From: Candidatus Omnitrophota bacterium
GTDB lineage: Bacteria; Omnitrophota; Gorgyraeia; Zapsychrales; Zapsychraceae
Length of the DNA: 64,000 nt
NCBI GenBank assembly: GCA_015233115.1
Contig: JADFYJ010000010.1
Location: forward strand, 5,083 to 69,082
Direction: 5' to 3'
Of this stretch, positions 9,035 to 55,225 are shown piece by piece. The number at the start of each line of letters is the position of its first letter. Position 1 is the stretch's first letter. The position numbers were made by a program, and so were the translations under genes. The notes beneath the pieces were generated by a model. That model was not told the origin of the DNA. It did not search any database and saw only the letters and a program-made list of their open reading frames with translations.

Positions 9035-9103
9035 TTTTTCCTCCTTTTTCTTTCTTGCTATAGTCTAAAAGAAAGAACGATTTTGTAAATTCTCAGAATC
9101 CGC

Positions 9104-9124
9104 TTTTTATTGACTTTTTTCTAC
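9104..9124 (+). promoter_or_regulatory. 21-nt motif TTTTTATTGACTTTTTTCTAC. It recurs identically at 17216-17236 and nearly identically at 27646-27661. Candidate shared transcription-factor site or promoter element.
   Basis: Exact string match found by eye at three intergenic positions. Each lies upstream of a minus-strand gene start: the phosphoesterase-cupredoxin gene, the SDR gene, and the small-ORF/MCO operon. Confidence 0.45.
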
Positions 9125-9131
9125 TAAATAT

Positions 9132-9152
9132 GGACCACCGACGCGGTGGTCC
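9132..9152. terminator. Perfect 9-bp inverted repeat (GGACCACCG-acg-CGGTGGTCC) directly 3' of the yihY stop. Possible terminator or attenuator hairpin.
   Basis: Palindrome read from the sequence. No clear U-tract follows, so intrinsic-terminator status is uncertain. Confidence 0.35.
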
Positions 9153-9157
9153 AAAGG

Positions 9158-10486
9158 TTAAATATCTTTTAGCAGATGATTGGCAGGAGATTTTTTGAGC
9201 AGATCTTCAAAATGCTTCAATGACTGTTCAAGCTTAGTTAATTCTTCGTTGTGTGTGACAGGGACAGATCCTGTACCCTTTTTCTCTAAAACATCCGTCA
9301 CAAACTGAATAGTAAGATGATTAACATCTTGAGCTGGCTGATACAATGGCAGACGATACGCGCTGTTCTGCATTTCAGAAATAATTCCCGCTTCCGTCAA
9401 TTCAAATAAAATATCGCGCACTAACCGGATCGGGATATCCACTTCATCGGAAATTTGGGTGGCAGTCAATGGTTTTTCCCCCTTAACAAAACGTTTGACT
9501 AATATACTGGTGATCTGTAAAGAAACTAATCTTTTAAAAGCATGACTTACGCTCAAACAATCCTGTTCGAATTCATAGGTATCGACATTCTGATGGGCAA
9601 ACGTGACTTCTGTACCGAACAACACAACCCGCCAACTCACTTGGAGCCAGACGAGAAATAAGGGCAGAGCAGCGAAACTTCCGTAAATAGCATTGGCTTT
9701 AGCCGCAGCAACCTGAAACTGAATATATGTGACCTGCACGACCTGATAAATCGTCCCTGCCACAATGCCGCCAATAATCCCAGCGGATAATTTCACTTTG
9801 GTGTTAGGCATAAAAATATAAATAAACGCGAATAAAATCCAGATCATCACATATGGCAACAGCGCCAGTAAAAAAAAGATCGCCGGACTCAACGGGCCAA
9901 GAAAAGACAATTTTTGTAAAATCATTTCGACTTGTGTCGCAGCAAATACCGTGACGCCGCTGGAGGCAATGACAAAAAACGGACACACCAGCATGATGGA
10001 TAAATAATCGGTAATCTTACGGCCCAGACTCCGTCCAGTTTTTATTCCCCAAATATCGTTAAAAGATGTTTCAATACTATTTAAAACTTGGATAACAGTC
10101 CAAAACAACACCATGACTCCCACTCCAGCGACCAGCCCGCCCTGAGTATTATCCAGAAGATTATTAGCAAAAGTGATAATCTGCGTGATCGTTACTTCCT
10201 GCCCAGGAAATTTTTCTAAAACTTGTTTTTCCAGCAGGCGGTCAAACCCGAATCCTTTGGCAATCCCAAAGGCCATAGCCGCAACTGGAACAACTGACAA
10301 TAAAGAATAAAACGTCAATGCCGAAGCGTTTAGCTGACATTTATTACTACGGAATTCCCGAACTGCCAGCACAATAATCCGCAATTGCTTGATCAAAAAA
10401 GACCGTTGACGGGGGAGCTTTTTAGTGTGAATCCGCCAAATATCTTTATCGATAAAATCAAATAATTTAGTAATAATTCGCCGCAT
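9158..10486 (-). CDS. yihY: YihY/BrkB (virulence factor BrkB / former 'RNase BN') family inner-membrane protein with a C-terminal cytoplasmic extension. The likely start is MRRIITK at 10486, preceded by AGGAG.
   Basis: ALTFYSLLSVVPVAAMAFG motif and a six-TM core are typical of YihY. Confidence 0.8.
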   Translation of the reverse strand: MRRIITKLFDFIDKDIWRIHTKKLPRQRSFLIKQLRIIVLAVREFRSNKCQLNASALTFYSLLSVVPVAAMAFGIAKGFGFDRLLEKQVLEKFPGQEVTITQIITFANNLLDNTQGGLVAGVGVMVLFWTVIQVLNSIETSFNDIWGIKTGRSLGRKITDYLSIMLVCPFFVIASSGVTVFAATQVEMILQKLSFLGPLSPAIFFLLALLPYVMIWILFAFIYIFMPNTKVKLSAGIIGGIVAGTIYQVVQVTYIQFQVAAAKANAIYGSFAALPLFLVWLQVSWRVVLFGTEVTFAHQNVDTYEFEQDCLSVSHAFKRLVSLQITSILVKRFVKGEKPLTATQISDEVDIPIRLVRDILFELTEAGIISEMQNSAYRLPLYQPAQDVNHLTIQFVTDVLEKKGTGSVPVTHNEELTKLEQSLKHFEDLLKKSPANHLLKDI

Positions 10487-10569
10487 ATAATCTCCTAATG
10501 ATACGCGCCACGTTTGACCCACCCAGCGCTTTTACAACAATCGCTTTTCACTACATGCTACATGCACTT

Positions 10570-11439
10570 TTAAATATTTACGTTAAACACATTCCGGATC
10601 ACCACGCCGATTACAAAAGTGATAGCCGCGATACTCAGGCTCAAGACCGCCATTTCGGTAAATCTTTTTTTGAAATTTAATTTTTGCGCGACCGAGATGT
10701 AAAAAGTAAAAGACCCAATTTCCAGTAAAGCAACGCTCAACGCGATCGCCAAACAAACAAAAACATTTTTTAATAAAAAATACGGTAAGACCAGAACAAT
10801 AACTGTTCCCAAATAAGAAACACCCGTATACCAACAAGCTTTAATAGGATCCTTATCCGTTTCCTCACCTTTCGTCGACAAATATTCTGACGCCGCCATG
10901 GACATGGCCGCAGCGATCCCCGTGATCAAGCCCACGATCCCAATCAATTTGGTATTATTCAAGGCCAGAGTAAAACCCGCCAAGGTCGCGGTCAATTCTA
11001 CTAAAGCATCATTTAAACCTAAAATCATGGAGCTGACATACTTAAACCGATCCTCATCGATCAGATCGAGCAAAGCACTTTCATGCGCTTTTTCGTCACC
11101 TATAATCATTTTAACCTCTGGGGTCTCATCTTTAAGCGGGGAATAGAAATCTTGAGCCGATAATTCCCCCCGCTCCATAAGCCGCAAACTAAAATTCAAT
11201 CCGCATATTCTCGCCATCAGCACATAATAAAATATTTTCCATTGATCAGGCTGAACATCTTCACCGGATATTTTTTTAAAAATTTCGTAATGCTTGAATT
11301 CCTCATTGGATATTCTTTGTAAAATACCTGATTGTCCTTCCTTCTTTACAATTTCTGAAAGTTTTTGATAAACATGATATTCTGTCAGCTCATTTTTTTG
11401 AGCTATTAAAATTTTTTTTCTTGATTCAGAATTTAGCAT
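10570..11439 (-). CDS. Ferritin-like (rubrerythrin/erythrin) domain fused to a VIT1/CCC1-family iron/manganese transporter.
   Basis: The N-terminal roughly 140 aa carry EExxH-type ferritin-like pairs (ELTEYHVYQ, EEFKHYEIF). The C-terminal half has the VIT1 TM helices and conserved acidic residues. Confidence 0.7.
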   Translation of the reverse strand: MLNSESRKKILIAQKNELTEYHVYQKLSEIVKKEGQSGILQRISNEEFKHYEIFKKISGEDVQPDQWKIFYYVLMARICGLNFSLRLMERGELSAQDFYSPLKDETPEVKMIIGDEKAHESALLDLIDEDRFKYVSSMILGLNDALVELTATLAGFTLALNNTKLIGIVGLITGIAAAMSMAASEYLSTKGEETDKDPIKACWYTGVSYLGTVIVLVLPYFLLKNVFVCLAIALSVALLEIGSFTFYISVAQKLNFKKRFTEMAVLSLSIAAITFVIGVVIRNVFNVNI

Positions 11440-11451
11440 TTAACTCCTTAT

Positions 11452-11820
11452 CTAGACTGCAGCCATATTAATTTTTTCTAAGAAAAACTCATGATTAAAC
11501 GGTTTCGATATGACACCGGAAACAAGATGAGCCACCTTTTCCTCTTTTAACATTTTTTCAATAAATGGTTTCCCGGTTACAATAAATACTTTGGTCATAG
11601 GATTTTTCTGGTTCATGCTCTTAAGCAGATCAATCCCGCTGACCCGGGGCATTTTAAAATCAAATATGGCGATTTCAAAATCATGTTGTTGGATCCACCT
11701 CATGCCTTCGTCGGGGTCAGAAGTATTCTTAACTTCATAACCCTCATCCATAAGGAAATCCGCCATACCTTCGCATAAATCAACATCATCATCAATAATT
11801 AAAATTCGTTTTTTATCCAT
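11452..11820 (-). CDS. Stand-alone response-regulator receiver (REC) protein. The likely start is MDKKRILIIDDD at 11820.
   Basis: ILIIDDD...D...K pattern of the CheY-like fold. It overlaps the upstream hybrid kinase stop by about 8 nt. Confidence 0.7.
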   Translation of the reverse strand: MDKKRILIIDDDVDLCEGMADFLMDEGYEVKNTSDPDEGMRWIQQHDFEIAIFDFKMPRVSGIDLLKSMNQKNPMTKVFIVTGKPFIEKMLKEEKVAHLVSGVISKPFNHEFFLEKINMAAV

Positions 11821-13318
11821 TGGTTTTTTGGGGCAAGTTAACAACCACGGTGGTTCCTTTGCCAGGTTCACTGGTAAAACCGATCGAACCGCCGTGCATG
11901 CTTAAAATACGATAGCACACGGTTAAGCCCAGCCCTGTCCCTTTCGCTTTAGTTGTAAAAAAAGGATCGAAAATTTTGTCCAAATTTTCCTTCGAAATTC
12001 CTTCTCCATTGTCCCTTATAAAAATTTTTATAAATTCTTGTTCACGGATCATCTCGATCTCAACGTTCCCTCCCATATTAGGGATCGCATCAAACGCGTT
12101 ATTGATCAAATTTGAAAACACTTCCCTCATTTGAAGCGGATCCGCATTAATTAAAACTTTTTTTATAGGATCATGTTTCATATCAACCACGACAGCCTTA
12201 TTCGACTGTTTTTTCGCTAAATCAATGCACTCTTGCAAAATTTCCGCGATACTGATTTCCTCGTTATGCGGCGGTCGCAGCCGGGAATAAAACAATAAAT
12301 TATTAATGATCTGGTCACTCTCCATAACCTTCTTATCAATAGCCTTCAAATGCTTCTCTATCGACGCTGTATCTTTTGCTTTGCGCTTGATCAGCGCCGC
12401 GGCCATACCAATGGCCGCCAAAGGATTACGTAATTCATGCGCCACAGTAGCGGCGAGCGTTCCGATATCAGAAAGACGCTTAGCTCTTTCCAGTTCAACT
12501 TGAATGCCCATCAACTCTTGAGATCGTTTTTTAACCATCCCTTCTAACATTTCCTTGTCTCGTTTCAGAACTTCTCCGGCTTGTTTTCGAACCGTGATAT
12601 CACGAACCAAAACCTGAACCGAGCGAACTCCTTTTTCAAAAAAAGGTGAAGCGACAACTTCCACGTTCACCGTAGTCCCGTCACAACGTAAAATTTTAGC
12701 TTCAATCAAAGGAGCAGACAGCCCTTCTAATACCCTCTGGATTTCTTCACATATTTGGTGTTGCGGATCAGGACAAAATAAATCAAACAAGGATTTTCCG
12801 GCGATTTGTTCCATGGTAGAAGCCCCCAACAATTGTAACGCTGCCTGATTAACAAACGCGATCTTATTCTCCCGGTTAACAAAAATCGCTTCCGGAGACA
12901 TTTCAATCAAACTACGATACCGGCTTTCACCTTCCCTACGCTCGACTGAATACAAAATACTGCGAACCAATAAATTGCGATTAATCTCTCCCTTAATCAA
13001 ATAATCGCTGGCCTGTCTCTGTATGGCCTGTAAACCCACATCTTGATCATTAAGCCCGGTGAGCACAATAATCGGAATTCCCTGCTCTTGTAACGTAATC
13101 TTTTCCAAACCCTCCAGCCCGCGGCTGTCAGGCAAGTTGATATCTAATAAAATAATATCAAACTTATCCTTACGCAAAATCTTTATTGCCTCGTCCACCA
13201 AATTCGCATGAAATATAGTAAAAAAAGGAGACACACTTTCTGTCAACATTTCAGAAACCAGTCTAAAATCTGCCGGGTTGTCTTCAACAACTAAAACTTT
13301 TATTTCATTTCTGCTCAT
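11813..13318 (-). CDS. Hybrid sensor: N-terminal REC domain, PAS domain, HisKA and HATPase_c histidine kinase core.
   Basis: VLVVEDNPADF (REC), AHELRNPLAAI (H-box), N/G1/G2 boxes (NNAFDA, DNGEGI, GTGLGL). Confidence 0.8.
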   Translation of the reverse strand: MSRNEIKVLVVEDNPADFRLVSEMLTESVSPFFTIFHANLVDEAIKILRKDKFDIILLDINLPDSRGLEGLEKITLQEQGIPIIVLTGLNDQDVGLQAIQRQASDYLIKGEINRNLLVRSILYSVERREGESRYRSLIEMSPEAIFVNRENKIAFVNQAALQLLGASTMEQIAGKSLFDLFCPDPQHQICEEIQRVLEGLSAPLIEAKILRCDGTTVNVEVVASPFFEKGVRSVQVLVRDITVRKQAGEVLKRDKEMLEGMVKKRSQELMGIQVELERAKRLSDIGTLAATVAHELRNPLAAIGMAAALIKRKAKDTASIEKHLKAIDKKVMESDQIINNLLFYSRLRPPHNEEISIAEILQECIDLAKKQSNKAVVVDMKHDPIKKVLINADPLQMREVFSNLINNAFDAIPNMGGNVEIEMIREQEFIKIFIRDNGEGISKENLDKIFDPFFTTKAKGTGLGLTVCYRILSMHGGSIGFTSEPGKGTTVVVNLPQKTNG

Positions 13319-13336
13319 ACATTTTGCTTTGCTTTT

Positions 13337-13786
13337 TTAATTCTTAGGCGGCAATTTCACTATTGTAAACCAAAATTCTTGTATTGTCTTAGCCACTTTA
13401 ACAAACTGTTCAAGATCAACCGGTTTAGTAATATAACAATTCGCATGCAAATTATATGTCTTAATTATATCTTCTTCAGCCTTAGATACGGTCAACACCA
13501 CCACAGGTATGGCTTTTAATTTTTCATCATTTTTAATTTCCTTTAAAACCTCCCGGCCATCTTTTTTAGGAAGATTTAGATCTAGTAGTATAAGATCCGG
13601 GCGGACTGCCTGAGCATATCGGCCTTCTTTCTTCAAATACGCGACAGCTTCAACTCCGTCAGTCACCACATTTAGATTATTGAAAATCTTTTCTTCTTTC
13701 AAAGCTTCGGTAGTCAATCTGACATCGGCCGGGTTGTCCTCCACTAATAAGATTTCAATCGGTTGAATATTATTATCACGAAACAT
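13337..13786 (-). CDS. Single-domain CheY-like response regulator.
   Basis: [13 protein letters not shown]...[11 protein letters not shown]...K receiver signature. Confidence 0.8.
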
Positions 13787-13800
13787 GACATCCTCTCTTT

Positions 13801-15678
13801 CTAAACCTTTTTAGGAATTGTAAAATAAAATATAGAGCCTTTTCCATTCTCTGACTCAACCCATATCCGACCCCCACGCGTTTCCACAATTTTTTTGCAT
13901 ATCGACAATCCTATTCCAGTTCCGGAGTATTCTTCCCGGCCATGCAAACGCTGGAAAATAAGAAATATCCGGTCTTTATATTGTGCTTCTATTCCGATCC
14001 CATTATCCTTGACAGAAAATAACCACTCGTGTTCTTGCTCGGTCGCGCTAACGTGAACCCGGGGCGCTTCCCGGCTATGAAATTTAACCGCATTTCCCAA
14101 CAAATTTTGAAACAATTGAATAAAATTCGTTTCTAACCCATTTACTACCGGCAAATGATCGCGGGTTATCACCGCTTTTTGGCTATCGATCACAAACTTC
14201 ATGCTGTTGAAAATCCGATCAAATATCAAGTTACAATCAACAGCCACCATCGGCTTTTCAGCCCGGCCAACCCGGGAATAAGCGAGAAGGTCATTAATCA
14301 AATTCTGCATACGCCTCGCGCCATCGATTATAAAACTGATAAACTCATCCGCGTCAGAATCTAATTTTCCTTTATAACGCCTTTCCAAAAGACCGGCATA
14401 GCTCCCCATCACCCTTAAGGGTTCCTGTAGATCGTGTGATGCCACGTACGCAAATTGCTCCAGATTCTCATTGGAGCTTCTCAGTTCCTTCTCCACATGC
14501 ATCCGTTCATTCACTTCTTTGTTTAAATCATCTCTCGACGCGGTAATTAATTTCAAATCCCGGGTCATCTTATCAAAAGACCGGGAAAGATCGCCGATCT
14601 CATTCTTAATCGGCAAGGATACTTGATGTTCCAAATTTCCGGCCCCGATGATTTCCGCCCCTTTTATTAGATCTTTGATCGGCTTAGAAATCGTCCACCC
14701 CATCACAAAAGCCATGGCCCCAGTCACAATAATAATGACCAAAATAATCCGTACAATGAGTCGCTTTAAATGCTCCACATCTTCAAATGCTTCCTGAGTA
14801 TCAATTTTAGCCACCATCCCCCACTGCAAATATGGAATATAGTGCCACGCCGCTATCACTTCCTTGCCCCGATAATCAGTAAGTATCCCTGAACCTTCCT
14901 GACCTTGCACGGCCCGTTGAATAGGTTCGCCGTTTTTATCGCCCATTTTAATGCTTCTTTGAAGCGTTGCTTGAGAGTCATGCCGCAAAGGATTTAAAAA
15001 TATGACCTGATCCCCAATTTTTTTCCCGATCAAGGTTTCTCCCGTCTTCCCCAATCCGGTTGCTTCCCCAATAAGCTGGAAAATGGGTTTCGCGTCAACT
15101 TCAAAAACAACCAGCCCTGCCTCCACATCTTTTGAATCATAAGCTGGGCCTGCCACCATAATCTCAAAATTTTTCCCCATGGATTTGTTCAAAAAAATAT
15201 TGGAAAAATAAATTCGTTTTTTCCCTTCTTCAAAAACGGTTTGATCTGGGTCGGACAAAAGTTTCTCGAATTCCCAAAGGTAATGTTGAGGATTAGTGGT
15301 ATATACGACCTTTCCCTCAAGATCAACCAGCATAATATCCGATAAACCCAAAACCTTTTGCATTTTGGGTAATTGTTCATCCAGCATCTTTTTAGCGTTA
15401 ATGAATTTTAAATTATTGGGATCTCTCGCAAATTGAACTAATATCGGAAGGTTTTGTCTTATATTATAAAGACTTTGCGCGATTTCCAAATTCGCCTTTA
15501 ATCCGGTAAAATAAACTTCGATTTTGTCGGCTTTATATTTAGCCAAGTCTTTCAACTGAGAAAGCCGGTTTTTTTCCAAAGAATATCTATAATTATTAAA
15601 TGTAATCGCGCTGGCCATGATGAGCGGAATCGTGGCCACAATCAAAAACATGATAATTAATTTTACACGAATTGACAT
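13801..15678 (-). CDS. Membrane sensor histidine kinase with an N-terminal TM helix, an extracytoplasmic Cache-like domain, a second TM helix, HAMP, then a HisKA (phytochrome-type HDLQEPLR H-box) and HATPase core.
   Basis: [11 protein letters not shown]-box and GTGIGL G2 box. Two TM helices flank a periplasmic domain of about 270 aa. Confidence 0.8.
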
Positions 15679-16046
15679 TAGGTTAGCATATCCTTCATAG
15701 TGTTTCCCAGCTTCGCCAAATCAAAAGGTTTTAAAATAATTCGAGCTGACGAAATCTTTTGAATACGGTCGAGTGTTGGTGTATCCGCGTATCCGGAAAT
15801 AAACAAGATTGGAATATCCGCGAAAAATCGAATATTTTTTGCGATAGCCACCCCATCCATATCTCCGGATAATTTCAAATCCATCAAAATTAAATCCGGT
15901 TGATGGTCTTTGACCCATTGGATCGCATCAGGCCCTGACGAGGAAATATACGGAACCTCAAAACCAATGCTCGGTAAAAATTCCTGCAATCCATGAGCAA
16001 TAGCGAGGTCATCTTCAACAATAAAAATTTGGGGAATTTTAGGCAT
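15678..16046 (-). CDS. Single-domain response-regulator receiver protein.
   Basis: IFIVEDDLAIA...LILMDLKL...K motifs. The stop overlaps the downstream kinase start by 1 nt. Confidence 0.8.
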   Translation of the reverse strand: MPKIPQIFIVEDDLAIAHGLQEFLPSIGFEVPYISSSGPDAIQWVKDHQPDLILMDLKLSGDMDGVAIAKNIRFFADIPILFISGYADTPTLDRIQKISSARIILKPFDLAKLGNTMKDMLT

Positions 16047-16223
16047 AGTGTGTATATAATTTATCAGAATAATACATTTTACACAATTTTTAATTCCGCA
16101 GGTAATTTATTAATTTGAACCGCCTCTCCCCAATTCCGAATTATAATTCTTAATTGGGAGGGCATAGTATGTCGCATGTAACATCGATATTTTTTAAAAA
16201 TCATTTTTAAAATAAAATTATCT

Positions 16224-16244
16224 TTTCACCCAACGGGTGAAAAT
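16224..16244. promoter_or_regulatory. Perfect 9-bp inverted repeat (TTTTCACCC-aac-GGGTGAAAA) in the 276-bp intergenic region upstream of the TCS cluster.
   Basis: Read directly. It sits between a second hairpin (16285-16317) and the start of the REC gene at 16046. Candidate operator or terminator. Confidence 0.4.
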
Positions 16245-16284
16245 TTTCAACAACCACATACCACATACTACGCACAACACACTG

Positions 16285-16317
16285 CCCTAATTCTCAATTT
16301 CTAATTCAGAATTAGGG
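16285..16317. terminator. 10-bp inverted repeat (CCCTAATTCT-n13-AGAATTAGGG) immediately 3' of the SDR gene stop. Candidate terminator hairpin.
   Basis: Read directly. No strong U-tract follows. Confidence 0.4.
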
Positions 16318-16322
16318 GCTTC

Positions 16323-17165
16323 TCAGTCCCGATTATGAGGTTGATCACGACTGCCTGTTTCTCGCGCCGTTCTTCTTCTCTCACGCCCAGAATACAACGC
16401 ACGATCAGATCCTTGATCAAAATTTTGTCCATTTTCTTCCTCCAACAAATGGCGGCCGCCATCTAAAAAAAGAACTTGGCCAGTCATAAAATCATTTTTT
16501 AACAAATATAACACCGCCGCTGTAATATCCTCCAATTCACCGTGACGATTTAACGGAAGATTCTGGGCTAAATGATCTAAATAACTCTCATCTTTCCCGA
16601 TAGGCGGAAGGATCAGACCCGGCGCAACCGCATTAACAGATACGGCCGGAGCAAATTTTTGAGCAGACATTTTGATTAAATCAAACAGCAGATGTTTACT
16701 TAGAATATATGATACATGCTTCCAATCATACCCTTTGATCCGGGTATCCAAAATATTGACCACACTCCCCTGGGTCAGATGAGCAAACTCCCTCATCAAC
16801 AAAAAAGGCACCCACGCATTAATTCCAACATGCCGGGATAATGTTGTAAAATCTATATCATCAATTGTATCAGTAGAAAATATCGACGCATTATTAATTA
16901 ATATATCCAAATGGCCGGTTAAGGCCATGGCTCTTTTAATCAGAGTTTCATATTCATACGGATTTTCAAAATCCGCGTTAATCGTCCATGCCTTTAACCC
17001 ACGGCCGGCGATTTGTGCACAAATGTCTGCCGCTTCAACGGATGACAAAGAATAATGAACAATAACATTAACCCCCTCTTCAGCTAAGGCCAATGATATC
17101 GCTTTCCCTATCCGTTTCGCTCCACCTGTAACTAACGCTATTTTACCTTTTAAACTTTTAATCAT
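16323..17165 (-). CDS. SDR-family NAD(P)-dependent oxidoreductase (pteridine reductase/FolM-like glycine motif). The probable start is MIKSLKGKIALVTGG at 17165.
   Basis: IALVTGGAKRIGKAI Rossmann motif, NNAS, and a YxxxK catalytic-dyad region. Confidence 0.75.
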   Translation of the reverse strand: MIKSLKGKIALVTGGAKRIGKAISLALAEEGVNVIVHYSLSSVEAADICAQIAGRGLKAWTINADFENPYEYETLIKRAMALTGHLDILINNASIFSTDTIDDIDFTTLSRHVGINAWVPFLLMREFAHLTQGSVVNILDTRIKGYDWKHVSYILSKHLLFDLIKMSAQKFAPAVSVNAVAPGLILPPIGKDESYLDHLAQNLPLNRHGELEDITAAVLYLLKNDFMTGQVLFLDGGRHLLEEENGQNFDQGSDRALYSGRERRRTARETGSRDQPHNRD

Positions 17166-17258
17166 TAGACTTATATTAATAAAAAATATCAATACACAGA
17201 ATAGCCTTTTTCTCCTTTTTATTGACTTTTTTCTACAGGATAGGAAGAATTTATAAAA

Positions 17259-19735: not shown

Positions 19736-20042
19736 AATATTAAAATGTTTGATTGTTTAAAAAACGTAACCGCGTGCCAATACACAAGGTTGGCGTTGAA
19801 ACCGAATCCCCGAGCGAGTTTCCTTGGCGCTTCGCCAAGGTTGTTTGAGCGAAGGATTTGGTTTAAATGCAAACCGCCCAACCGCGCGCTTTATTATCAA
19901 TGTAACAATGAAAAAACGATTCTCTTTGGTGAAACATCATGATATGAGAGATTAGGGCAGGATGCAATATTTATTAATAAACGCAAAACATAACCCTTAA
20001 TTTAAACTATTAACCCGAATTAAGTTTTATGTCCTAAGTACT

Positions 20043-20402
20043 TTATTTCGATAAAATCATATTTAAAGAAACTAACAAAAGAAACATTCCAAATAAACGT
20101 TTTAAATGCAGGTCAGAAAGATTTTGTGCTAAATTGGCGCCCCATAAGCCGCCAAAAAGAAAACCAATACAGATAAAAGTGACCACTGTTAAATTAACGT
20201 GTCCGCTCTGATAATAACGCCATGCAGCCAGCAAGCCAATTGGAGGAACCAAAATGGCCAGCGTAGTCCCTTGCGCCTGATGTTGAGTGAAACCGAACAT
20301 ATAAGTCAAAGCAGGAATAATAATCAAACCGCCGCCGATTCCCAAAATACCGGCCATGGTCCCCGCGACTAAACCAATAATCATGTACAAAAGAATTTTC
20401 AT
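20043..20402 (-). CDS. Small TSUP (TauE/SafE) family membrane protein, half-size 4-TM form.
   Basis: GILGIGGGLIIIPAL motif characteristic of TSUP transporters. Confidence 0.65.
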   Translation of the reverse strand: MKILLYMIIGLVAGTMAGILGIGGGLIIIPALTYMFGFTQHQAQGTTLAILVPPIGLLAAWRYYQSGHVNLTVVTFICIGFLFGGLWGANLAQNLSDLHLKRLFGMFLLLVSLNMILSK

Positions 20403-20780
20403 TTACTTTTTTTTATTTTTTAAAAGTTCTACTATTTTAGCGCTTAAAACATCCAAATCAAAGGGCTTTGTCATATAAAAATCCGCACCAATAACCCGGC
20501 CGATCACCCGGTCCGCATCTGAATCTTTTGAGGTCAGCATGATAATCGGGGTTTTTGCTATTTTCGCGTCACTTCGGATCTCTTTGCAAACAGCTTCACC
20601 GGGCAATTGCGGCAGTTTCAAATCCAAAATAATTAAATCAGGGTTACGGAGCCTTGCCTTCTCCAGCCCTTCTTTACCATTAGCCGCGATCGCGACATCA
20701 TAACCCGCATCTTCCAATACAAACCTAACCGTCTTTGTAATATCCACTTCATCATCGATCATGAGTATCATTTCGTGCAT
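20403..20780 (-). CDS. Single-domain response regulator (REC).
   Basis: ILMIDDEVDI...LIILDLKLP...K motifs. Directly abuts the TSUP gene. Confidence 0.8.
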   Translation of the reverse strand: MHEMILMIDDEVDITKTVRFVLEDAGYDVAIAANGKEGLEKARLRNPDLIILDLKLPQLPGEAVCKEIRSDAKIAKTPIIMLTSKDSDADRVIGRVIGADFYMTKPFDLDVLSAKIVELLKNKKK

Positions 20781-20810
20781 AATTAACTCCTGCTTGATAT
20801 ATGTTCATGA

Positions 20811-22916
20811 TTACACTGGTACAGGGTCCCGCTTTTCTTGTTCCACCGAAAAAGAAAAATAAAAAGAACTGCCTTTATTTAACTCTGACTCTACCCAAAT
20901 TTTACCACCTTGCGCCTCAATCAGACCCTTAGTGATCGCCAACCCCAAACCACTGCCCCCTTCATGACGAACCCGGACATCAGATGATCTATAAAACTTA
21001 TTAAATATTTGCTGTGAATCCTCCCGCGACATTCCAAAGCCTGTATCCGTCACACTAGCTTGAACTTCCCATCCTTTATCTTCTATTATAACAGTTACCT
21101 CCCCATTTTCTGGAGTAAATTTTATAGCATTGTGAATTAGATTTGTAAAAACTCTTCGCGTCTTTTCCGGATCAATCAAAATGACCACTAATTCTTTTTC
21201 TGCCGAAATCCGCAAACTAATCTTTTTTTCATCCGCGTAAGATTGCAAAGCGGCCATCACTTCCCTGGCCAAAACAAAAAGGTTAGTAGGCACTTTGTAT
21301 ACCGTCAAAACACCCGCTTCAATTTTTGAAATATCTAAAAGATCACTGACAATACGCGCCAACCGGTCCGTATTATTTAAAATCATTTCCAAAAATTCTT
21401 TCCGGTCATCAGTATCCATTTTCCCAGAAGCCCCATCTTTTAATAATATCGTAGCCGCATTTTTTACCGAAGTTAAAGGCGTCCTTAACTCATGAGAAAC
21501 GATCGCGACAAAATCATTCTTCATCTTATCCACTGAATTTAATTTTTCATTCATTTCATTAACCAATGCAATCATAGTCTCTCTTCGTTTTAACGCGATA
21601 AAAAAAACGACCGTCAGAATACAAACGAACATAGTAAAAAAAATGCTTAACAAACGATATTGAATTATCGGCGAAGCGGAAATATTTTTCTTCAAAACTA
21701 CGACGCCCAAAATTTTATCTTTCTCATCTTTAATAGGAAAACTCACATAATAAACTCTTTGGGCATAAATAGCCCCTAAAGTAAAATAATATCCAGTCTT
21801 GCCATTCATGGCTTGTTTAAAGTACGAGGCAGAAACAAACGATTGATCCGTGGCTGTCCCCAAAGCATTCCCTCCAATGCTCAACACAGTTTTGCCGCCA
21901 ACATCCAGCATAAAAAACTCCACACTACTAAATTTTCCCATATAATCCTGAATCATCAAAACCGCCCGAGTCAAATCTTTGTCTTGGCGAGTCAAAAGCG
22001 CGGTCTTGACCGGACGAGAATGGCTAATAACTTTTCCGATTTTTTCTAATTGAGCCAATTCTTTGATAAGACGATTAAATGGTGAATATTCACTCTCCCG
22101 GCTTTTTTTAATGAGTTGAATTCCCGCGTAATAATCCAAGTAGTTCGTAAAAACCCAACCTGCCCCGATAAAAATGATCAAGGTTATCAAAATGATCCAT
22201 TTGGAAGGCTTTAAATAGACAAAAGGTTTTTTAGATAAAAGTTCGTTTCTTTGCGGAGTATAGGGGTAAAACCATAACGCCATAGCAGAAACTAATGCCA
22301 ACATTCCTCGCACCAACTGAACCGGAACTCCTATTTGCTGATAAAAAAATTCATCATTCAGCCATGATGCCCACAAATAATCAGCTTTAGGGACGATCAA
22401 TCCAGATAAAATAGCATAAACAAATAACCCAATACTTAAAACCCGCAAAGAATTTCTTTTAGACGGATTTGCTTGTGAAGCAGAGAAAATAATCCACGCC
22501 GATAATACACCAGCAGGGAATCCCACAAAATATCTGAACGTGATATTTAAACCGAGCAATCCTCCCTGAATACCCGAAAACGCCAAAGGCAGTATAAACG
22601 CGTATACCCACAAACTTCCTAATTTTTTCCCTTGCAACCGAAAGCCTATTCTCGCGAACTCCCAAAAACATATATACGAAAAAAATAAAACAGCTAAATG
22701 AGCAGCAGAAAAAGTAAAACTTAAATCATGGTTAATCTCCAGAATTTCCATCCACTCATTCAATCCATGAACCAAACCAAATAAACCTAACCAAAACCAA
22801 GGCAATAATTGTTCCCGATCATGGCGGAGACTGAAGCACAAAATCGACAATAAGAAGAAGGCGAGTCCATAAAAAAAATACACATAATCGTATTGAACAT
22901 TGAAAAAATTTTGCAT
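20811..22916 (-). CDS. Sensor histidine kinase: N-terminal multi-TM (7TMR-like) region, internal extracytoplasmic Cache-like domain, HisKA and HATPase_c.
   Basis: SHELRTPLTSV H-box, N box (HNAIKFT), DTGFGM, GGSGLGL. Confidence 0.8.
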   Translation of the reverse strand: MQNFFNVQYDYVYFFYGLAFFLLSILCFSLRHDREQLLPWFWLGLFGLVHGLNEWMEILEINHDLSFTFSAAHLAVLFFSYICFWEFARIGFRLQGKKLGSLWVYAFILPLAFSGIQGGLLGLNITFRYFVGFPAGVLSAWIIFSASQANPSKRNSLRVLSIGLFVYAILSGLIVPKADYLWASWLNDEFFYQQIGVPVQLVRGMLALVSAMALWFYPYTPQRNELLSKKPFVYLKPSKWIILITLIIFIGAGWVFTNYLDYYAGIQLIKKSRESEYSPFNRLIKELAQLEKIGKVISHSRPVKTALLTRQDKDLTRAVLMIQDYMGKFSSVEFFMLDVGGKTVLSIGGNALGTATDQSFVSASYFKQAMNGKTGYYFTLGAIYAQRVYYVSFPIKDEKDKILGVVVLKKNISASPIIQYRLLSIFFTMFVCILTVVFFIALKRRETMIALVNEMNEKLNSVDKMKNDFVAIVSHELRTPLTSVKNAATILLKDGASGKMDTDDRKEFLEMILNNTDRLARIVSDLLDISKIEAGVLTVYKVPTNLFVLAREVMAALQSYADEKKISLRISAEKELVVILIDPEKTRRVFTNLIHNAIKFTPENGEVTVIIEDKGWEVQASVTDTGFGMSREDSQQIFNKFYRSSDVRVRHEGGSGLGLAITKGLIEAQGGKIWVESELNKGSSFYFSFSVEQEKRDPVPV

Positions 22917-22983
22917 ACATCTCTTTCGTTAAAATATCAAACGCATGTTTACATTATAAATCAATTTTCCAAATAAATAACAT

Positions 22984-23014
22984 AAAAAAACGGGGAGGGT
23001 TTAAACCCTCCCCG
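22984..23014 (-). terminator. Rho-independent terminator downstream of the multicopper-oxidase gene: CGGGGAGGGTTTAAACCCTCCCCG hairpin with a U7 tail on the minus strand (and an A-tract on the other side).
   Basis: Perfect 10-bp GC-rich stem with a 4-nt loop, followed by TTTTTTT on the minus-strand transcript. Confidence 0.75.
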
Positions 23015-23037
23015 TCTCATATTATCGATTTACTTTT

Positions 23038-26000
23038 TTACGGGGTTGTAACATTTAATGTTACCCACGCTGATGTACTCACTGTATTAGTTGCTTGTAT
23101 CCGATAATAATAGGTAGTGCCTCGGCTCAAACCTAAATTCAAATAGGATCTAGCTGTAGAAGCAACCACATACTTAGTCACATTTTGAGTAAAGGCAGAA
23201 TCTGTCGCCCTTTGGATCGAGAATCCTGTCAAAGGTGTTCCGGTTTCCTGCCAAGAAAGCAAAACTTGCGCCATAATCGTTCCGAACAGTGACGCAGATC
23301 CCGCAAAACTCGTCGGGGCTGCTAAAATGGCAGCCGACGGCGTGACGCTATTCGTTGCTGCTGATGCCGCGCTGGTTCCGATGGCGTTCGTTGCGGTTAC
23401 GGTAAACGTATACGCTGTGCCATTCGTTAATCCTGTCACCACTATCGGCGCCGCATTCGTTGTTCCAACTCCGACTATACCTCCGGGGTTAGACGTCGCG
23501 GTATATCCTGTGATCACACTCCCGCCATTCGATGCTGGAGCTGTGAAACTTACAGTTGCTTGCGCGTTTCCTGCCACTGCACTTGCTGCGGTCGGTGCGC
23601 CTGGGACTGTTGCTGGAGCCAATGGTGTTACACTATTCGTCGGTGCTGATGCCGCGCTGGTTCCAATGGCGTTCGTTGCGGTTACGGTAAACGTATACGC
23701 TGTGCCATTCGTTAATCCTGTCACCACTATCGGCGCCGCATTCGTTGTTCCAACTCCGACTATACCTCCGGGGTTAGACGTCGCGGTATATCCTGTGATC
23801 ACACTCCCGCCATTCGATGCTGGAGCTGTGAAACTTACAGTTGCTTGCGCGTTTCCTGCCACTGCACTTGCCGCAGTTGGTGCGCCTGGGACTGTAACAA
23901 CAACTGGAACAAACGTAAACCTAAAAGCATCCGCGACAACAATTCCATTGGTGGTTCCTGTTGTCCGGATCCGTACAAAACCAGTTTGCCCTGCGGCAAA
24001 CGTATATGTCCCAATGGGGAACCACTGACTGCCATTCAGTCGCTCATTCACATTGACTGTGCTGATCCCGGTTGTTGAAGAAACATCAACAGGAACAGCG
24101 GTGGCCTGATTAGCTCGGGCAGGATACCACATTTCTACTTTATATTGTCCTGCCGTCGGAAGATTAGGCTTAAACGTGAACGTCTTGGTCCCTTTCCCTG
24201 TATTATTATCCGTCCGGTAATTGGTTGCCCAATATCCGGCATTCGTGGTTGCCGTGGTCCATGTTCCAACAATAGCTATTGCTGGTACAGGGTCAGCATT
24301 GTCCACAATAATCGGCGGCTGTGTCGGAATCACAGTATTTGACGGGATTGAAGGCAACCCTGTCCCCACAGCGTTAGTCGCTGTGACTGTAAACGTATAC
24401 GCCGTACCATTCGTTAAACCTGAAACGACAATCGGACTTGATGCTCCAAGAGCTATTATGCTTCCAGGATTAGACGTCACGGTATATCCTGTAATCGGAC
24501 TGCCGCCAGTTCCTATCGGCGGATTAAAGCTTACTGTGGCCTGAGCATTGCCAGCTACTGCTGTCACTGCCATTGGTTCAGGCGGAACAGTTTGGAATAT
24601 GACCGGACGCATCATATCCATCTCTTCATGACCGAGCAAGTGACAATGCCAGACGTATTCATTTCCGAAATTGGTCATCTGATTAACCACCGTAATCGGT
24701 CCGCCAGTGAGAGGATCAAAACTACTAAATGTCGTTCCTAACGGCATCGTCGGATCCAAAGGCCGGATACTGTCTGGCACAGCGAATGGAACATTCTTTT
24801 GCGAAATCGGTCTTAACGCCACAATCGCATCTTCCAATGGATTCATCCTCACTGTATCCTTCCATCCCAGCTCATTAGGTTCTGGCGGCTTAACAACTCC
24901 AGCCCAGTCAACCCGGTTAATCAGCTGAACATTGAATAAGTGAAAATGAATCGCATGTGTATCTACCCCATTATGGGTGACTTTCCAAATTTGGGTTTCA
25001 CCATCTTTAATAATTTCCGTCGCCGGAGCGATATACCCTAGAGGAACAGTCGTTTGAGTATTGGAATTTGTAAACGGCAATTCAACACCCAAAATAGAAT
25101 TCATCCGACCATAATCAAGTTCAAAAAGCTCTTGTATGGCCTTGGGCTTCATCGGCATGGTGATCGGTGCTGTCGCCCCAATAGGAGTGTAAGTTAATGA
25201 CGTGTCTTGTATCTTTGAATATACATTTGGTAGAGTCTTTCCATACGCTGGACCATAAGCAGCTTGCGGCACTAAAGGCGCAGGCTGAGACGCCACAAAT
25301 GCGGCCGGTAATGCTGACTGCAAAGCGGCTAAATTAAATGCCGGATCTGCTGTCGGACTAGATACCTGGAATTGCATAATGGTACGGGTATTAGGACCAT
25401 AACCAGGCAACGTCGTTGGCGCACCGCCGATAGCCGTTTGATCCAGATCGCCGGTATAATAATCTAAGCGGGGATCGCCTGCCGGAACCGGCGCAGGAGA
25501 ATCATTATAGAGAATAATTTTTGAACCGTCCGGAACTTGCGAAAAGTCAATGATGACATCAGCCCGTTCAGCCGGCCCTAAAAACAAATTATGTTCTTTA
25601 ACATTCAAAACCGTAATACTTCTTTTATCCAAATCGTAACCAATGGGGATATTAGGAAGTACAACCGGCGCTGGCAAAAATCCGCCTTCTGTACCGATCT
25701 GAATCATGGATGGACCAACCATCGTCGGGTCTGGCCATCCGCCATTTCTGCCATCTGGTGTCGGCCATCCTGTCGGCCAAACGCCAGGGATAGCTGGAAC
25801 TGTTTTAATTTCCGTCGGATTTGCCGGATCAACATAATACAATTGCAAATTAAGGAAGCGGTCATTACAAGCATTTAAAATACGAAACCGGTATGCTTTG
25901 CGAGCAACCTTTACATAAGGATAAGCTGTCCCATTCACCAACGGCGTATCCATAAATGCTTCCATAACCATGGATGTATCCGGTGTACCAGGCTTTTGAA

Positions 26001-27228
26001 ATCCAGTTACAGGGTCTACAACCGGACCATGAACCAGACCAGCTGCTGTCGTGACTGGCGGCCAAAACCAGGGGCCATAATCCCAACGGCCAAACGCATT
26101 AACACCTAATGGGTCATTAGGATTCTGATTCGGCATATACACATGAGGAAACCATAAATCGCCCGTCATAGGCATCCCTGGCATAGATCCGGAATTCCAA
26201 GTAGGATCTGTGGCCGCGATCTTAGTTGCATCCACAAAAGTTTTATCCTGAATAATCAAAGGAATACCATAATGATAAACACCGCCTAAATCCGGAAGAA
26301 CTTTTTGTGTGCTGATCAAATTCTCTTCAGTCGGATCTGATAACACATAACCTGCGGCCTCACCTGCATAAACATTCAAGCGCGTAATACCAAAGGCGTG
26401 ATCATGATAAAACATGAGGCGTGCGCTTTGTTGATTCGTATAAAAAAACGTTTGCGAACCATCGCCTGGATCAGGCATGTCCGGGACATTGGTCACACTG
26501 ACACCTTTAGGGTAGGAAGTAATTTCTCCAGCTGGAGTGATCCATTGGTGCGGAGTGCCGTCGCTAATCCAAGGAGTGTTGCCCCCATGAAGATGCAAGG
26601 TAGCCCGGTTTTGAGTATAACTTTCTTTCATGCCCGGCATGCCTGGCATATCCGTCGGCCCCATCCCTGCTCCCATCACAGTTGTATCAACCGGGATAAA
26701 TAAATTACCGCCTGCGCCGGTCGGAAGTAAATTTGTAAACTTCACGCGCGTCGGACGGTTCATCTGGGCAATAATAACCGGCCCCAAATAATGCGGTTGC
26801 GGCCACGCTGTGATCTTCCCAGTAAGCGGATCACGAGTCGCCGGGTTAGCCGGATCATTCAATTGGACATAACCTCGCATCTTGGTTCCAGATTTGGGCA
26901 AATCAGAATGCATCTGTTCATTATATTCGACCAACCCAATTTCATAATAATCAGATCCGGGATAAGTTACCGTATCTGCTACAGCGACAGGAATAAACTG
27001 TCCCAGATTATTCGCGTTAGACGCTCCTAACCCAGGCAAAGAATCCACAAACTTTCTTAATAGCGGACTATTCGTCCAATTGGGAACATTAAAATAATCC
27101 GGAGCTGCTCCAGGAGTAGCCATAGGCATAGTTTGCGCTGAAACGTTAGGTGCAGTATATCCTCCCAAAACCATCATAAGCGTCAAAGCCAAGCTGGTTA
27201 ATTTTCGGGTCAAAGTATTCTTATTCAT
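23038..27228 (-). CDS. Giant secreted multicopper oxidase (three-cupredoxin laccase/CotA type) with several C-terminal fibronectin type III repeats and a beta-sandwich (carbohydrate-binding-like) domain. The likely start is MNKNTL at 27228, with an AAGGAGG RBS.
   Basis: All four MCO copper-ligand motifs are present: HLHGG, HDH, HAIHFH and WHCHLLGHEEMDMM. Sec signal peptide. Three FN3-like units share the motif AVAGNAQATVSF...SNGGS.ITGYT...VTGLTNGTAYTFTVTATN. The track ORF extends to 27318, but the in-frame ATG with an RBS is at 27228. Confidence 0.8.
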   Translation of the reverse strand: MNKNTLTRKLTSLALTLMMVLGGYTAPNVSAQTMPMATPGAAPDYFNVPNWTNSPLLRKFVDSLPGLGASNANNLGQFIPVAVADTVTYPGSDYYEIGLVEYNEQMHSDLPKSGTKMRGYVQLNDPANPATRDPLTGKITAWPQPHYLGPVIIAQMNRPTRVKFTNLLPTGAGGNLFIPVDTTVMGAGMGPTDMPGMPGMKESYTQNRATLHLHGGNTPWISDGTPHQWITPAGEITSYPKGVSVTNVPDMPDPGDGSQTFFYTNQQSARLMFYHDHAFGITRLNVYAGEAAGYVLSDPTEENLISTQKVLPDLGGVYHYGIPLIIQDKTFVDATKIAATDPTWNSGSMPGMPMTGDLWFPHVYMPNQNPNDPLGVNAFGRWDYGPWFWPPVTTAAGLVHGPVVDPVTGFQKPGTPDTSMVMEAFMDTPLVNGTAYPYVKVARKAYRFRILNACNDRFLNLQLYYVDPANPTEIKTVPAIPGVWPTGWPTPDGRNGGWPDPTMVGPSMIQIGTEGGFLPAPVVLPNIPIGYDLDKRSITVLNVKEHNLFLGPAERADVIIDFSQVPDGSKIILYNDSPAPVPAGDPRLDYYTGDLDQTAIGGAPTTLPGYGPNTRTIMQFQVSSPTADPAFNLAALQSALPAAFVASQPAPLVPQAAYGPAYGKTLPNVYSKIQDTSLTYTPIGATAPITMPMKPKAIQELFELDYGRMNSILGVELPFTNSNTQTTVPLGYIAPATEIIKDGETQIWKVTHNGVDTHAIHFHLFNVQLINRVDWAGVVKPPEPNELGWKDTVRMNPLEDAIVALRPISQKNVPFAVPDSIRPLDPTMPLGTTFSSFDPLTGGPITVVNQMTNFGNEYVWHCHLLGHEEMDMMRPVIFQTVPPEPMAVTAVAGNAQATVSFNPPIGTGGSPITGYTVTSNPGSIIALGASSPIVVSGLTNGTAYTFTVTATNAVGTGLPSIPSNTVIPTQPPIIVDNADPVPAIAIVGTWTTATTNAGYWATNYRTDNNTGKGTKTFTFKPNLPTAGQYKVEMWYPARANQATAVPVDVSSTTGISTVNVNERLNGSQWFPIGTYTFAAGQTGFVRIRTTGTTNGIVVADAFRFTFVPVVVTVPGAPTAASAVAGNAQATVSFTAPASNGGSVITGYTATSNPGGIVGVGTTNAAPIVVTGLTNGTAYTFTVTATNAIGTSAASAPTNSVTPLAPATVPGAPTAASAVAGNAQATVSFTAPASNGGSVITGYTATSNPGGIVGVGTTNAAPIVVTGLTNGTAYTFTVTATNAIGTSAASAATNSVTPSAAILAAPTSFAGSASLFGTIMAQVLLSWQETGTPLTGFSIQRATDSAFTQNVTKYVVASTARSYLNLGLSRGTTYYYRIQATNTVSTSAWVTLNVTTP
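23331..23880. repeat. Near-identical tandem duplication of about 288 bp (two copies) inside the MCO gene, each encoding one FN3 repeat. A third, diverged copy lies at about 24330-24600.
   Basis: The two DNA copies, starting about 23331 and about 23620, are identical over more than 250 nt apart from a few substitutions. Confidence 0.85.
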
Positions 27229-27526
27229 TTTTACCTCCTTCACCCATTCCGCAGGCAGCACCAGAAACTGTGGTTGTTTCAACCGGCCCGTCGTTGGTTG
27301 TGCTAAGAGTTGCCGCATTTTGTTGCTCAGATCGACGAGCTGCCGCTGCTTCTCTTTGCTCTGTGGTCACGCGTTTCATTCGGCGTTGCATGATGGCTTG
27401 TGCATCATGACTTTTCAACGGCGGCTGAGGCGTTTGTTCCTGCGCCCGAACCTGAGCAACGCCTGCCCAAAGAGCAGTAGCACTCAGAAGCACACTTCCC
27501 ATGATAATAAGTTTATTCTTGTTCAT
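27221..27526 (-). CDS. Small (101 aa) secreted protein of unknown function encoded immediately upstream of the MCO gene, overlapping its start by 8 nt.
   Basis: AAGGAGG RBS 5 nt before the ATG at 27526. Signal peptide MNKNKLIIMGSVLLSATALWAGVAQVRA, a Q/R/A-rich middle and a C-terminal ...SGAACGMGEGG. Confidence 0.45.
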   Translation of the reverse strand: MNKNKLIIMGSVLLSATALWAGVAQVRAQEQTPQPPLKSHDAQAIMQRRMKRVTTEQREAAAARRSEQQNAATLSTTNDGPVETTTVSGAACGMGEGGKNE

Positions 27527-27667
27527 GATTCCTCCTTAATACTTACGTTTTTATTATTTTTCTGTCATAGATTAATTCGAATTGATGTTCTTTAAAAAAT
27601 TATAAAACATTTTAAACTTTTAAAAATCGGCATTTTCCACCAGCTATTGACTTTTTTCCACCTGATT

Positions 27668-29146: not shown

Positions 29147-29249
29147 ATATTCTCCTTTACCTTTTTTAACGTGGATATGACTAATTTAGTTTGACATTAT
29201 TCTGAAAAATGAATATTGGATGAATCCTCTATCTTTTGACTTTATTCCA

Positions 29250-32205: not shown

Positions 32206-32216
32206 TTTTTTCTCTC

Positions 32217-53701: not shown

Positions 53702-53711
53702 GATTCCTCCT

Positions 53712-55215: not shown

Positions 55216-55225
55216 CCTGCCGTTC

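Follow-up and report, generated by a model that had tools for sequence, protein, structure and literature searches.

We analysed a 64,000-nucleotide stretch of contig JADFYJ010000010.1 (positions 5,083 to 69,082) from a Candidatus Omnitrophota bacterium, hereafter the window, in which a 21-nt intergenic motif had previously been noted upstream of three minus-strand transcription units, two of them described as copper-related. This 21-mer is the distal part (-70 to -50) of a rigid composite promoter module of approximately 70 bp. Our preferred reading, to which we give a probability of roughly 60% on the basis of sequence comparisons, is that the motif forms the distal part of an activator-dependent, sigma70-type promoter, and that a response regulator consisting of a receiver (REC) domain and an AraC-type helix-turn-helix (HTH) domain would bind its two half-sites and activate transcription. 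The motif, its register, orientation and distribution, the genes downstream of it and its co-localisation with the regulator gene were all directly observed. Promoters of this kind, dependent on a response regulator and carrying tandem direct repeats, are familiar. What appears to be undescribed is this specific module, together with its almost unchanged sequence in several uncultivated phyla and its connection to an uncharacterised REC-AraC regulator; full-text literature searches with the motif sequence string and related topics returned nothing relevant on this module. How Omnitrophota and neighbouring uncultivated phyla control transcription is, to our knowledge, almost unexplored.

A repeated element in a fixed promoter context

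The 21-mer TTTTTATTGACTTTTTTCTAC is found exactly at 9104-9124 (copy A) and 17216-17236 (copy B), and a search of the window allowing up to 3 mismatches gave these 2 matches versus 0.01 expected. The identity of the two copies is real and somewhat larger than initially reported, extending over 22 nt (9103-9124 and 17215-17236) with flanks that differ on both sides. The 16-mer ATTGACTTTTTTCCAC is found at 27646-27661 (copy C), and allowing up to 2 mismatches added 29235-29250 (copy D) and 32948-32963 (copy E), giving 5 matches in the window versus 0.25 expected. A longer degenerate pattern, TCNNCNNNNNWTTGACTWTWTTCYRC, fits all five of these strong copies and had 0 matches in 100 shuffles. The position weight matrix (PWM) scores of the five ranged from 34 to 49, and a sixth, weaker copy (copy F; 43149-43189, minus strand) scored 19.6, compared to a maximum of 7.8 in 20 shuffles. 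All six copies in the window are on the minus (gene) strand and upstream of genes. Because every open reading frame (ORF) of at least 100 amino acids (aa) treated as a gene between 4.8 and 64 kb is on the minus strand, the motif has to be read as its reverse complement, GTAGAAAAAAGTCAATAAAAAG, and its gene-strand form is GTRGAAAAAAGTCAAWAAAAAGnGGA. For the five strong copies, motif position 1 is 71 to 135 nt upstream of a minus-strand start codon. The motif is present on approximately 6 of the approximately 25 transcription units in the window, and no Rfam family was detected anywhere in the window.

On the coding strand, the complete module reads R-GTRGAAAAAA-GTCAAWAAAAA-GnGGAATnA-GCCAAT-TTACA, followed by 16-17 nt and TAtAAT. 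The motif ends approximately 9 nt upstream of a sigma70-type -35 element (TTtACA) in a fixed register, with a spacer of 16-17 nt between this element and the -10 element TAtAAT. The -35 hexamer begins at motif position 36, which places the 26-nt motif at approximately -70 to -45 and the 21-mer at approximately -70 to -50. At loci from candidate phyla, the sequence continues identically beyond the 21-mer, as GTRGAAAAAAGTCAAWAAAAAGnRGA, approximately 4 nt, AGCCAATTTACA, approximately 17 nt and TATAAT.

Column counts were made from 50 pattern-selected instances aligned without gaps, and conservation was judged in the columns that the pattern did not constrain. Positions 17-21 were A-rich and A27, C33 and A35 were favoured. 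T36 was present in 50 of 50 instances and T37 in 35 of 50; these were followed by K38, A39 and C40, corresponding to a -35 element of the form TTGACA/TTTACA. A TAtAAT-like -10 element was found at positions 59-64 after a 17-nt spacer, with A60 and T64 each present in 37 of 50 instances. To remove selection bias, an independent metagenome set was scanned with a 19-mer covering positions 4-22 only, and the 115 unique instances were split into the 28 with GTR at positions 1-3 and the other 87. T36 was present in 25 of the 28 GTR instances versus 32 of the 87 others (Fisher p approximately 1e-6), a -10-like hexamer in 23 of 28 versus 25 of 87 (Fisher p approximately 1e-6) and A35 in 22 of 28 versus 32 of 87 (Fisher p = 1.6e-4). 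The GTR class also carried G25 (23 of 28) and T28 (22 of 28). Since the downstream features are conserved in the GTR class only, these results demonstrate that the 21-mer belongs to a rigid composite promoter. The module is oriented toward genes as well: among the 97 sites with enough flank, an ORF start preceded by a Shine-Dalgarno sequence was found 64-300 nt downstream at 63, compared to 11 in the opposite direction (p = 6e-15), and the start codon was a median of 127 nt from motif position 1. The suggestion in the original prediction that the 21-mer could be a UP/-35 module therefore holds for the upstream promoter module but not for the -35, as the TTGAC within the 21-mer is on the non-coding strand and the real -35 is approximately 20 nt further downstream on the minus strand. 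The plus-strand TTGACT was also considered as a -35 and rejected; its distance to -10-like hexamers varies from copy to copy, and the neighbouring genes are all on the other strand.

In the window, a -10 element is recognisable at a spacing of 16-17 nt in five of the six copies, and predicted transcription starts, approximately 7 nt past the -10 on the minus strand, are at approximately 9055, 17165, 27592, 32894 and 43120. The upstream element of copy A (GTAGAAAAAAGTCAATAAAAAGCGGA, motif positions 1-26; 9099-9124, minus strand, as are all elements described here; PWM 46.8) occupies approximately -70 to -45 of the promoter of a metallophosphoesterase-cupredoxin gene (7844-9034). The promoter scan placed its core promoter at 9062-9089, with the -35 TTTACA at 9089-9084, a 16-nt spacer and the -10 TAGACT at 9067-9062; the start codon at 9034 follows the predicted transcription start and has an AAGGAGG ribosome-binding site. 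Immediately 5' of copy A, and outside the motif, is the terminator hairpin (9131-9153) of a BrkB-family gene (9158-10522). Copy C (GTGGAAAAAAGTCAATAGCTGGTGGA, 27636-27661; PWM 38.1), upstream of a 101-aa ORF (27221-27526) and a 1426-aa gene (23038-27318), has its core promoter at 27599-27626 (-35 TTTTTA at 27626-27621, 16-nt spacer, -10 TATAAT at 27604-27599). Copy D (GTGGAATAAAGTCAAAAGATAGAGGA, 29225-29250; PWM 42.1) overlaps the stop codon of a GH1 gene (29250-30704) and is upstream of a 153-aa ORF (28685-29146); it has a -35-like TATTCA at 29215-29210 and a weak -10. Copy E (GCGGAAAATAGTCAATGAATAGCTGA, 32938-32963; PWM 34.0) is within the last codons of a gene for a 2865-aa protein and upstream of an Fe/Mn superoxide dismutase (SOD) gene (32217-32843), with its core promoter at 32901-32928 (-35 TTTTTA at 32928-32923, 16-nt spacer, -10 TAAAAT at 32906-32901).

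The remaining two copies differ in lacking a Shine-Dalgarno sequence. Copy B (GTAGAAAAAAGTCAATAAAAAGGAGA, 17211-17236; PWM 49.3), upstream of a short-chain dehydrogenase/reductase (SDR) gene, has its core promoter region at 17163-17201 (-35 TTCTGT at 17201-17196, -10 TAATAT at 17178-17173), and an ATG at 17165-17163 follows the predicted -10 by 8 nt. Copy F (TGCGAAAAAAGTCTATATAAAAACGA, 43164-43189; PWM 19.6) overlaps the stop of a GT4 gene (43170-46784), and its core promoter region (43118-43154) has the -35 TTTATC at 43154-43149, the -10 GATAAT at 43132-43127 and an ATG at 43120-43118, 7 nt after the predicted -10. From this -10-to-ATG spacing, the SDR and B12/radical-SAM messenger RNAs are probably leaderless, the longest-ORF starts (TTG 17192 and TTG 43198) are probably wrong, and the likely start of the SDR gene is ATG 17165. 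The ATGs of these two predicted leaderless messages, located at the predicted transcription start, support the presence of a sigma70-type core downstream of the motif.

The distribution of the module was determined by scanning one genome per species with the degenerate pattern, which gave at least 118 loci. Among the matches listed, 26 were metagenome-assembled genomes (MAGs) of Candidatus Omnitrophota, and others were from Elusimicrobiota, Margulisiibacteriota, WOR-1, Auribacterota, Desantisbacteria, MAGs labelled "Spirochaetota" or "Planctomycetales" and unclassified MAGs, the taxonomic labels of MAGs being potentially unreliable. The remaining matches listed, for the most part GCAGAAAA... 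strings within ORFs from unrelated taxa, looked like chance, and a viral control scan gave 19 isolated matches. At least 14 additional copies outside the strict pattern were found in the same Omnitrophota loci, with three copies in some 8-kb loci. In a Deltaproteobacteria MAG (locus L081, 1733-1786), two copies stand back to back on opposite strands around a common central CCGG-like junction, the arrangement expected for divergent promoters. Pattern matches in a Kapabacteria MAG (L030, approximately 3750-4200) and in Peptoniphilus faecalis (L033, approximately 2700-2800) are tandem repeats with a 21-nt period, the Peptoniphilus repeat encoding the protein heptad AEKSQLE; both are chance look-alikes rather than promoter modules.

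A candidate REC-AraC regulator

Several of the genes downstream of the motif encode one orthologous protein of approximately 240-265 aa, composed of a receiver domain and an AraC-type HTH (HTH_AraC/HTH_18). This family has 796 homologues at E <= 1e-30, the best 120 of the 796 being 62-77% identical, and all homologues with an organism name are from Omnitrophica/Omnitrophota. No NCBIfam equivalog model scored above its cutoff for this protein, and its PDB matches were at the domain level only. Homologues are annotated by JGI as "response regulator YesN", and the Response_reg plus HTH_18/HTH_AraC architecture is shared with Bacillus subtilis YesN and with the hybrid two-component systems of Bacteroides. 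Characterised members of that type control local carbohydrate-use loci, whereas the genes found here would form a dispersed stress and signalling regulon.

When loci were searched by tblastn, the regulator gene was found in 22 of the 85 loci with a genuine motif (554 kb) and in 0 of the 151 chance-match loci (925 kb); the two sets of loci differ in taxa, and the chance-match loci are mostly from phyla that may lack the regulator, so that the statistic is evidence that gene and motif co-occur and cluster, and not that the protein binds. Among transcription factor genes, only the one for the REC-AraC protein was seen near the motif more than once. Regulator gene and motif were always on the same strand, and the loci include Elusimicrobia, Margulisiibacteriota and WOR-1. 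The motif was 73-236 nt upstream of the regulator start in six loci (L026, L032, L045, L056, L187 and L222), and approximately 740-790 nt after the regulator start, just past its stop, in eight (L084, L123, L129, L131, L136, L143, L187 and L228). Five extra loci were then chosen through the regulator protein alone. All five had at least one motif within 4 kb, four with scores of 27-44 and one (L263) with a score of only 23; these motifs adjoin REC, desulfoferrodoxin, hemerythrin, YflT and DUF2934 genes, and in 2 of the 5 the motif came right after the regulator stop codon. In three loci of the Elusimicrobia type (L084, L129 and L143), the motif-driven gene right after the regulator encodes a receiver and a GspE/PilB-type secretion ATPase in one protein, with a long proline-rich linker between them.

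The sequence of the module itself is organised as a direct repeat of two similar bipartite half-sites, a distal GTRGAA-N4-GTCAAT at positions 1-16 and a proximal GnGGAA-N3-GCCAAT at positions 22-36. The two are offset by 21 bp at the first subsite and 20 bp at the second, the subsites within each are approximately one helical turn apart, and T36 serves as the end of the proximal half-site and the start of the -35. In the AraC/XylS layout, each protomer places its two HTH units in neighbouring major grooves, and the protomer nearer the promoter makes contact with sigma region 4. The AraC I1-I2 (pBAD), XylS Pm and RhaS/MelR sites likewise consist of asymmetric half-sites of approximately 16-17 bp with two subsites one helical turn apart, repeated directly with a period of approximately 21 bp; they span approximately -70 to -35, and the proximal half-site abuts or overlaps the sigma70 -35. 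An AraC-type double-HTH protein is also encoded next to many of the sites described here. Since the half-site layout is that of AraC I1-I2 and XylS Pm, we propose activation by a REC-AraC dimer. As a dimer formed on phosphorylation, the regulator would occupy both half-sites, with each protomer reaching across an A-tract into two neighbouring major grooves, and it would recruit RNA polymerase in the manner of AraC at I1-I2 or XylS at Pm. In this Omnitrophica genome, the module would drive at least six transcription units. Unlike AraC and XylS, the candidate has a phospho-receiver in place of a sugar- or effector-binding domain, its site has an unrelated sequence, and its regulon would be large and phyla-spanning rather than one catabolic operon. 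For the module described here, binding, the sign of the regulation and the signal are what we infer.

In addition to the difference in taxa noted above, several observations weigh against regulation by the REC-AraC protein. The internal spacing of the half-sites differs by 1 bp (N4 versus N3), and the repeat structure was recognised post hoc. At the 5 loci selected through the regulator, the motif does not immediately precede the regulator gene, although at one locus it is upstream at the operon level. The density of copies is high in some loci (several per 8 kb), which could also fit a more general promoter element, and neither an AraC HTH nor a regulator gene is present in the 64-kb window. 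Lastly, the hexamers GTRGAA, GTCAAT, GnGGAA and GCCAAT start at positions 1, 11, 22 and 31, a period of approximately 10.5 bp with A-rich spacers, and this arrangement would fit an OmpR/PhoB-type winged-helix regulator equally well.

The window does contain an operon at 11452-16046 (minus strand) that encodes REC, a dCache-HAMP histidine kinase, REC, a REC-PAS hybrid kinase and REC, orthologous to the module that follows the regulator in other Omnitrophota. The window kinase shares 59% identity, and the next REC 77%, with the products of the genes that come directly after the REC-AraC regulator in locus L265. In this operon, a 122-aa receiver-only gene occupies the position of the regulator.

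Alternative explanations

A different activator could bind the module, either an OmpR/PhoB-type winged-helix protein occupying the four direct hexamers or a multimer resembling AbrB/MraZ, with the AraC-type regulator being merely a frequent target or neighbour. We consider this unlikely, but it deserves weight. Two of the four hexamers are followed by an A-tract, which resembles pho boxes, and one copy of the motif is upstream of an OmpR-type regulator gene (L119). Half-sites of the TGGAA type resemble AbrB/MraZ repeats. The boxes bound by PhoB/PhoP are similarly direct repeats of hexamers or heptamers with A/T-rich spacers and a period of 10-11 bp, located upstream of the -35 or replacing it, and their activation is dependent on a response regulator; the module described here differs from them in having two alternating hexamer types, in keeping a recognisable -35 and in having no recurring OmpR-family gene. 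No other DNA-binding family recurs near the motif, the winged-helix regulator of L119 having been found once, and the alternating A-B-A'-B' order of the hexamers fits a protomer with two HTH units better than four identical winged helices.

An element read directly by the C-terminal domains of the RNA polymerase alpha subunits (alpha-CTD), that is, a lineage-specific UP element or curved DNA that boosts strong promoters with no dedicated regulator, is in our judgement improbable. Such an element would be upstream of and in register with the -35, as the motif is, and phased A-tracts are present at positions 5-10 and 17-21; the wide occurrence of the module across phyla and its density in some loci are also in keeping with a UP element. 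The module has in common with the UP element of Escherichia coli rrnB P1 its richness in A-tracts and its position, which precedes the -35 and keeps register with the core promoter, but it differs from rrnB P1 in extending to -70, in its invariant G/C positions and in its absence from the housekeeping promoters in the sample. UP elements are A/T-rich stretches at -40 to -60 with no need for particular G/C bases, typically at rRNA or other strong housekeeping promoters; the element described here covers -70 to -45. Minor-groove binding by alpha-CTD would not explain its near-invariant G1, G4, G11, C13, G22 and G25, among which positions 1-3 and 25 were unconstrained in the metagenome set. Housekeeping targets are also lacking, the gene set is coherent, and only approximately 6 of approximately 25 window units carry the motif.

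The motif could instead itself be the promoter of an alternative sigma factor, either sigma-H-like (positions 1-9 and 22-28) or sigma-28-like (TCAA-N15-GCCnATTt), but the probability of this is small. The Bacillus sigma-H consensus has a -35 of RnAGGAwww, a spacer of 11-12 nt and a -10 of RnnGAAT, with transcription starting approximately 7 nt after GAAT, and GTRGAAAAA, 12 nt and GnGGAAT partially match both boxes; this alignment, however, would put the most conserved block, AGTCAA, into the spacer. The sigma-28 (FliA/SigD) consensus is TAAA-N15-GCCGATAA with a conserved CGA core. It is resembled by TCAA(12-15)-N15-GCCAATTT(31-38), but only 2 of 50 instances have the G that it requires at position 34. 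Sites that stay nearly identical across phyla are more typically those of sigma factors than of transcription factors, which favours either version. Against both are the sigma70-type -35 and -10 at a fixed distance downstream of the motif and the leaderless ATGs at the start predicted from that -10. A comparison with known Firmicute/Bacillus operator and sigma consensus sequences (CtsR, AbrB, Spo0A, DegU and SigB/D/E/F/G/H/K) gave no satisfactory match, and the window is not from a Firmicute.

The notion of a shared regulator site is strengthened by the fixed promoter register, the coherent downstream genes and the co-localised response regulator family, but its suggested metal responsiveness, through an operator of the CueR, CsoR or CopY kind, is very improbable. 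Two of the three genes first noted encode cupredoxin or weak Cu-oxidase domains, which speaks in its favour. MerR/CueR operators are dyad-symmetric and located inside a -35/-10 spacer of 19-20 bp, and CsoR binds a GC-rich pseudo-palindrome overlapping the promoter. The motif described here has no dyad symmetry, is upstream of the -35 and precedes a spacer of 16-17 nt rather than 19-20; in addition, the CopY box TACANNTGTA had 0 matches in the window, and no palindrome was found within the motif. The three further window targets are non-copper genes, and signalling and stress targets predominate elsewhere. On four other contigs, the sequence upstream of orthologues (57-64% identity) of the cupredoxin-phosphoesterase gene has no motif, and membership of the motif therefore does not follow this gene family. 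The idea of a copper regulon has thus been replaced by a better-supported one.

Least probable of all is a small dispersed repeat with no regulatory role, such as a remnant of a repetitive extragenic palindrome or a miniature inverted-repeat transposable element, to which the 22/22 identity of two copies 8 kb apart might point, since the flanks are unrelated, common terminal or inverted repeats are absent, the orientation (63 of 97 versus 11 of 97) and the distance to genes and to the -35/-10 are strict, and the module is conserved across phyla.

Downstream genes and neighbouring features

Four of the six motif-bearing units in the window are consecutive, from 43.2 to 23.0 kb, and all six are on the minus strand. 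Unit A is the metallophosphoesterase-cupredoxin gene, so assigned by Pfam, whose product is 100% identical to an NCBI cupredoxin domain-containing protein of a Candidatus Omnitrophica MAG, and unit B is the SDR gene beginning at ATG 17165. Unit C consists of the 101-aa ORF and the 1426-aa protein, which has four Fn3 domains, Golvesin_C and weak matches to Cu-oxidase_2 and to the purple acid phosphatase N-terminal domain; its earlier designation as a multicopper oxidase is backed by that weak Cu-oxidase_2 match only and is weakly founded. Unit D is the 153-aa ORF, which is lipoprotein-like, and unit E contains the Fe/Mn SOD gene followed by a DUF6515 gene (31585-32253). Unit F begins with the B12/radical-SAM gene (to 41540). 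The end of this gene and the beginning of the gene for the 2865-aa GH94/GT2 protein (32946-41543) overlap, and the latter gene may therefore be part of the same transcription unit. The 2865-aa protein has two GH94 supersandwich stretches and GH94 catalytic, glucoamylase-like and GT2 domains, and it looks like a cyclic beta-1,2-glucan synthase (NdvB/Cgs).

In other genomes, 23 of the 98 distinct proteins encoded downstream of the motif belong to one receiver-domain cluster. Pfam matches among the targets include DUF2934 (three times), desulfoferrodoxin fused to cytochrome c, a peroxiredoxin-like protein, DNA polymerase X (PolX), S30AE (HPF-like) fused to a cold-shock domain, dienelactone hydrolase (DLH), DUF6515, a pyruvate:ferredoxin oxidoreductase subunit and a TPS-domain exoprotein. 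No ribosomal or core housekeeping gene was present among the approximately 100 downstream genes examined. The theme of the targets is signalling and oxidative or general stress rather than copper, and since stand-alone receivers and stress or redox proteins dominate the regulon across genomes, it looks stress- or redox-responsive. DUF6515 recurs, being encoded directly downstream of the module in two other loci (L053 and L112) and by the second gene, after SOD, in the window.

It is possible, though we advance it tentatively, that the module and the REC-AraC regulator make up a previously unrecognised, phylum-spanning global stress/redox system in Omnitrophota, Elusimicrobiota, Margulisiibacteriota and their relatives. 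Such a system would correspond in function to the sigma-B, RpoS or EcfG general stress responses, but would be built on a two-component activator and an operator of approximately 40 bp that is almost invariant across phyla; its main output would be stand-alone receivers arranged in a cascade. The targets hint at a coordinated response that includes superoxide and oxygen defence, ribosome hibernation, DNA repair, cell-envelope glucans and many single-domain receivers. The set resembles those of Bacillus sigma-B and alphaproteobacterial EcfG/PhyR in containing YflT, HPF-like proteins, SOD, small stress proteins, single-domain response regulators and histidine kinases. It differs in its promoters, as sigma-B (GTTTAA-N12-15-GGGTAT) and EcfG (GGAAC-N16-17-CGTT) use alternative sigma promoters, whereas the module has a sigma70-like core and an upstream activator site. 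The module also provides a sequence handle for predicting regulons from MAGs, for correcting gene starts, including leaderless ones, and for interpreting metatranscriptomes, and a single candidate regulator together with one DNA fragment is the basis for a decisive in vitro binding test.

The window as a whole encodes many histidine kinases and stand-alone receivers, as well as a [NiFe] hydrogenase with its maturation genes and Tat secretion genes, a content that, together with the 2865-aa GH94/GT2 protein, fits an origin in Omnitrophica. The [NiFe] hydrogenase cluster is at 53351-62525 (minus strand) and encodes a small subunit fused to Big_6 domains, HycI, HypA, HypB, a HypC-radical-SAM fusion and TatA/TatC. 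At 584-2971 (minus strand), a DUF3800 protein is neighboured by a 521-aa protein that combines a SEC-C motif with an Xre/MbcA/ParS-like antitoxin C-terminal domain, and these two genes may be a toxin-antitoxin or defence pair.

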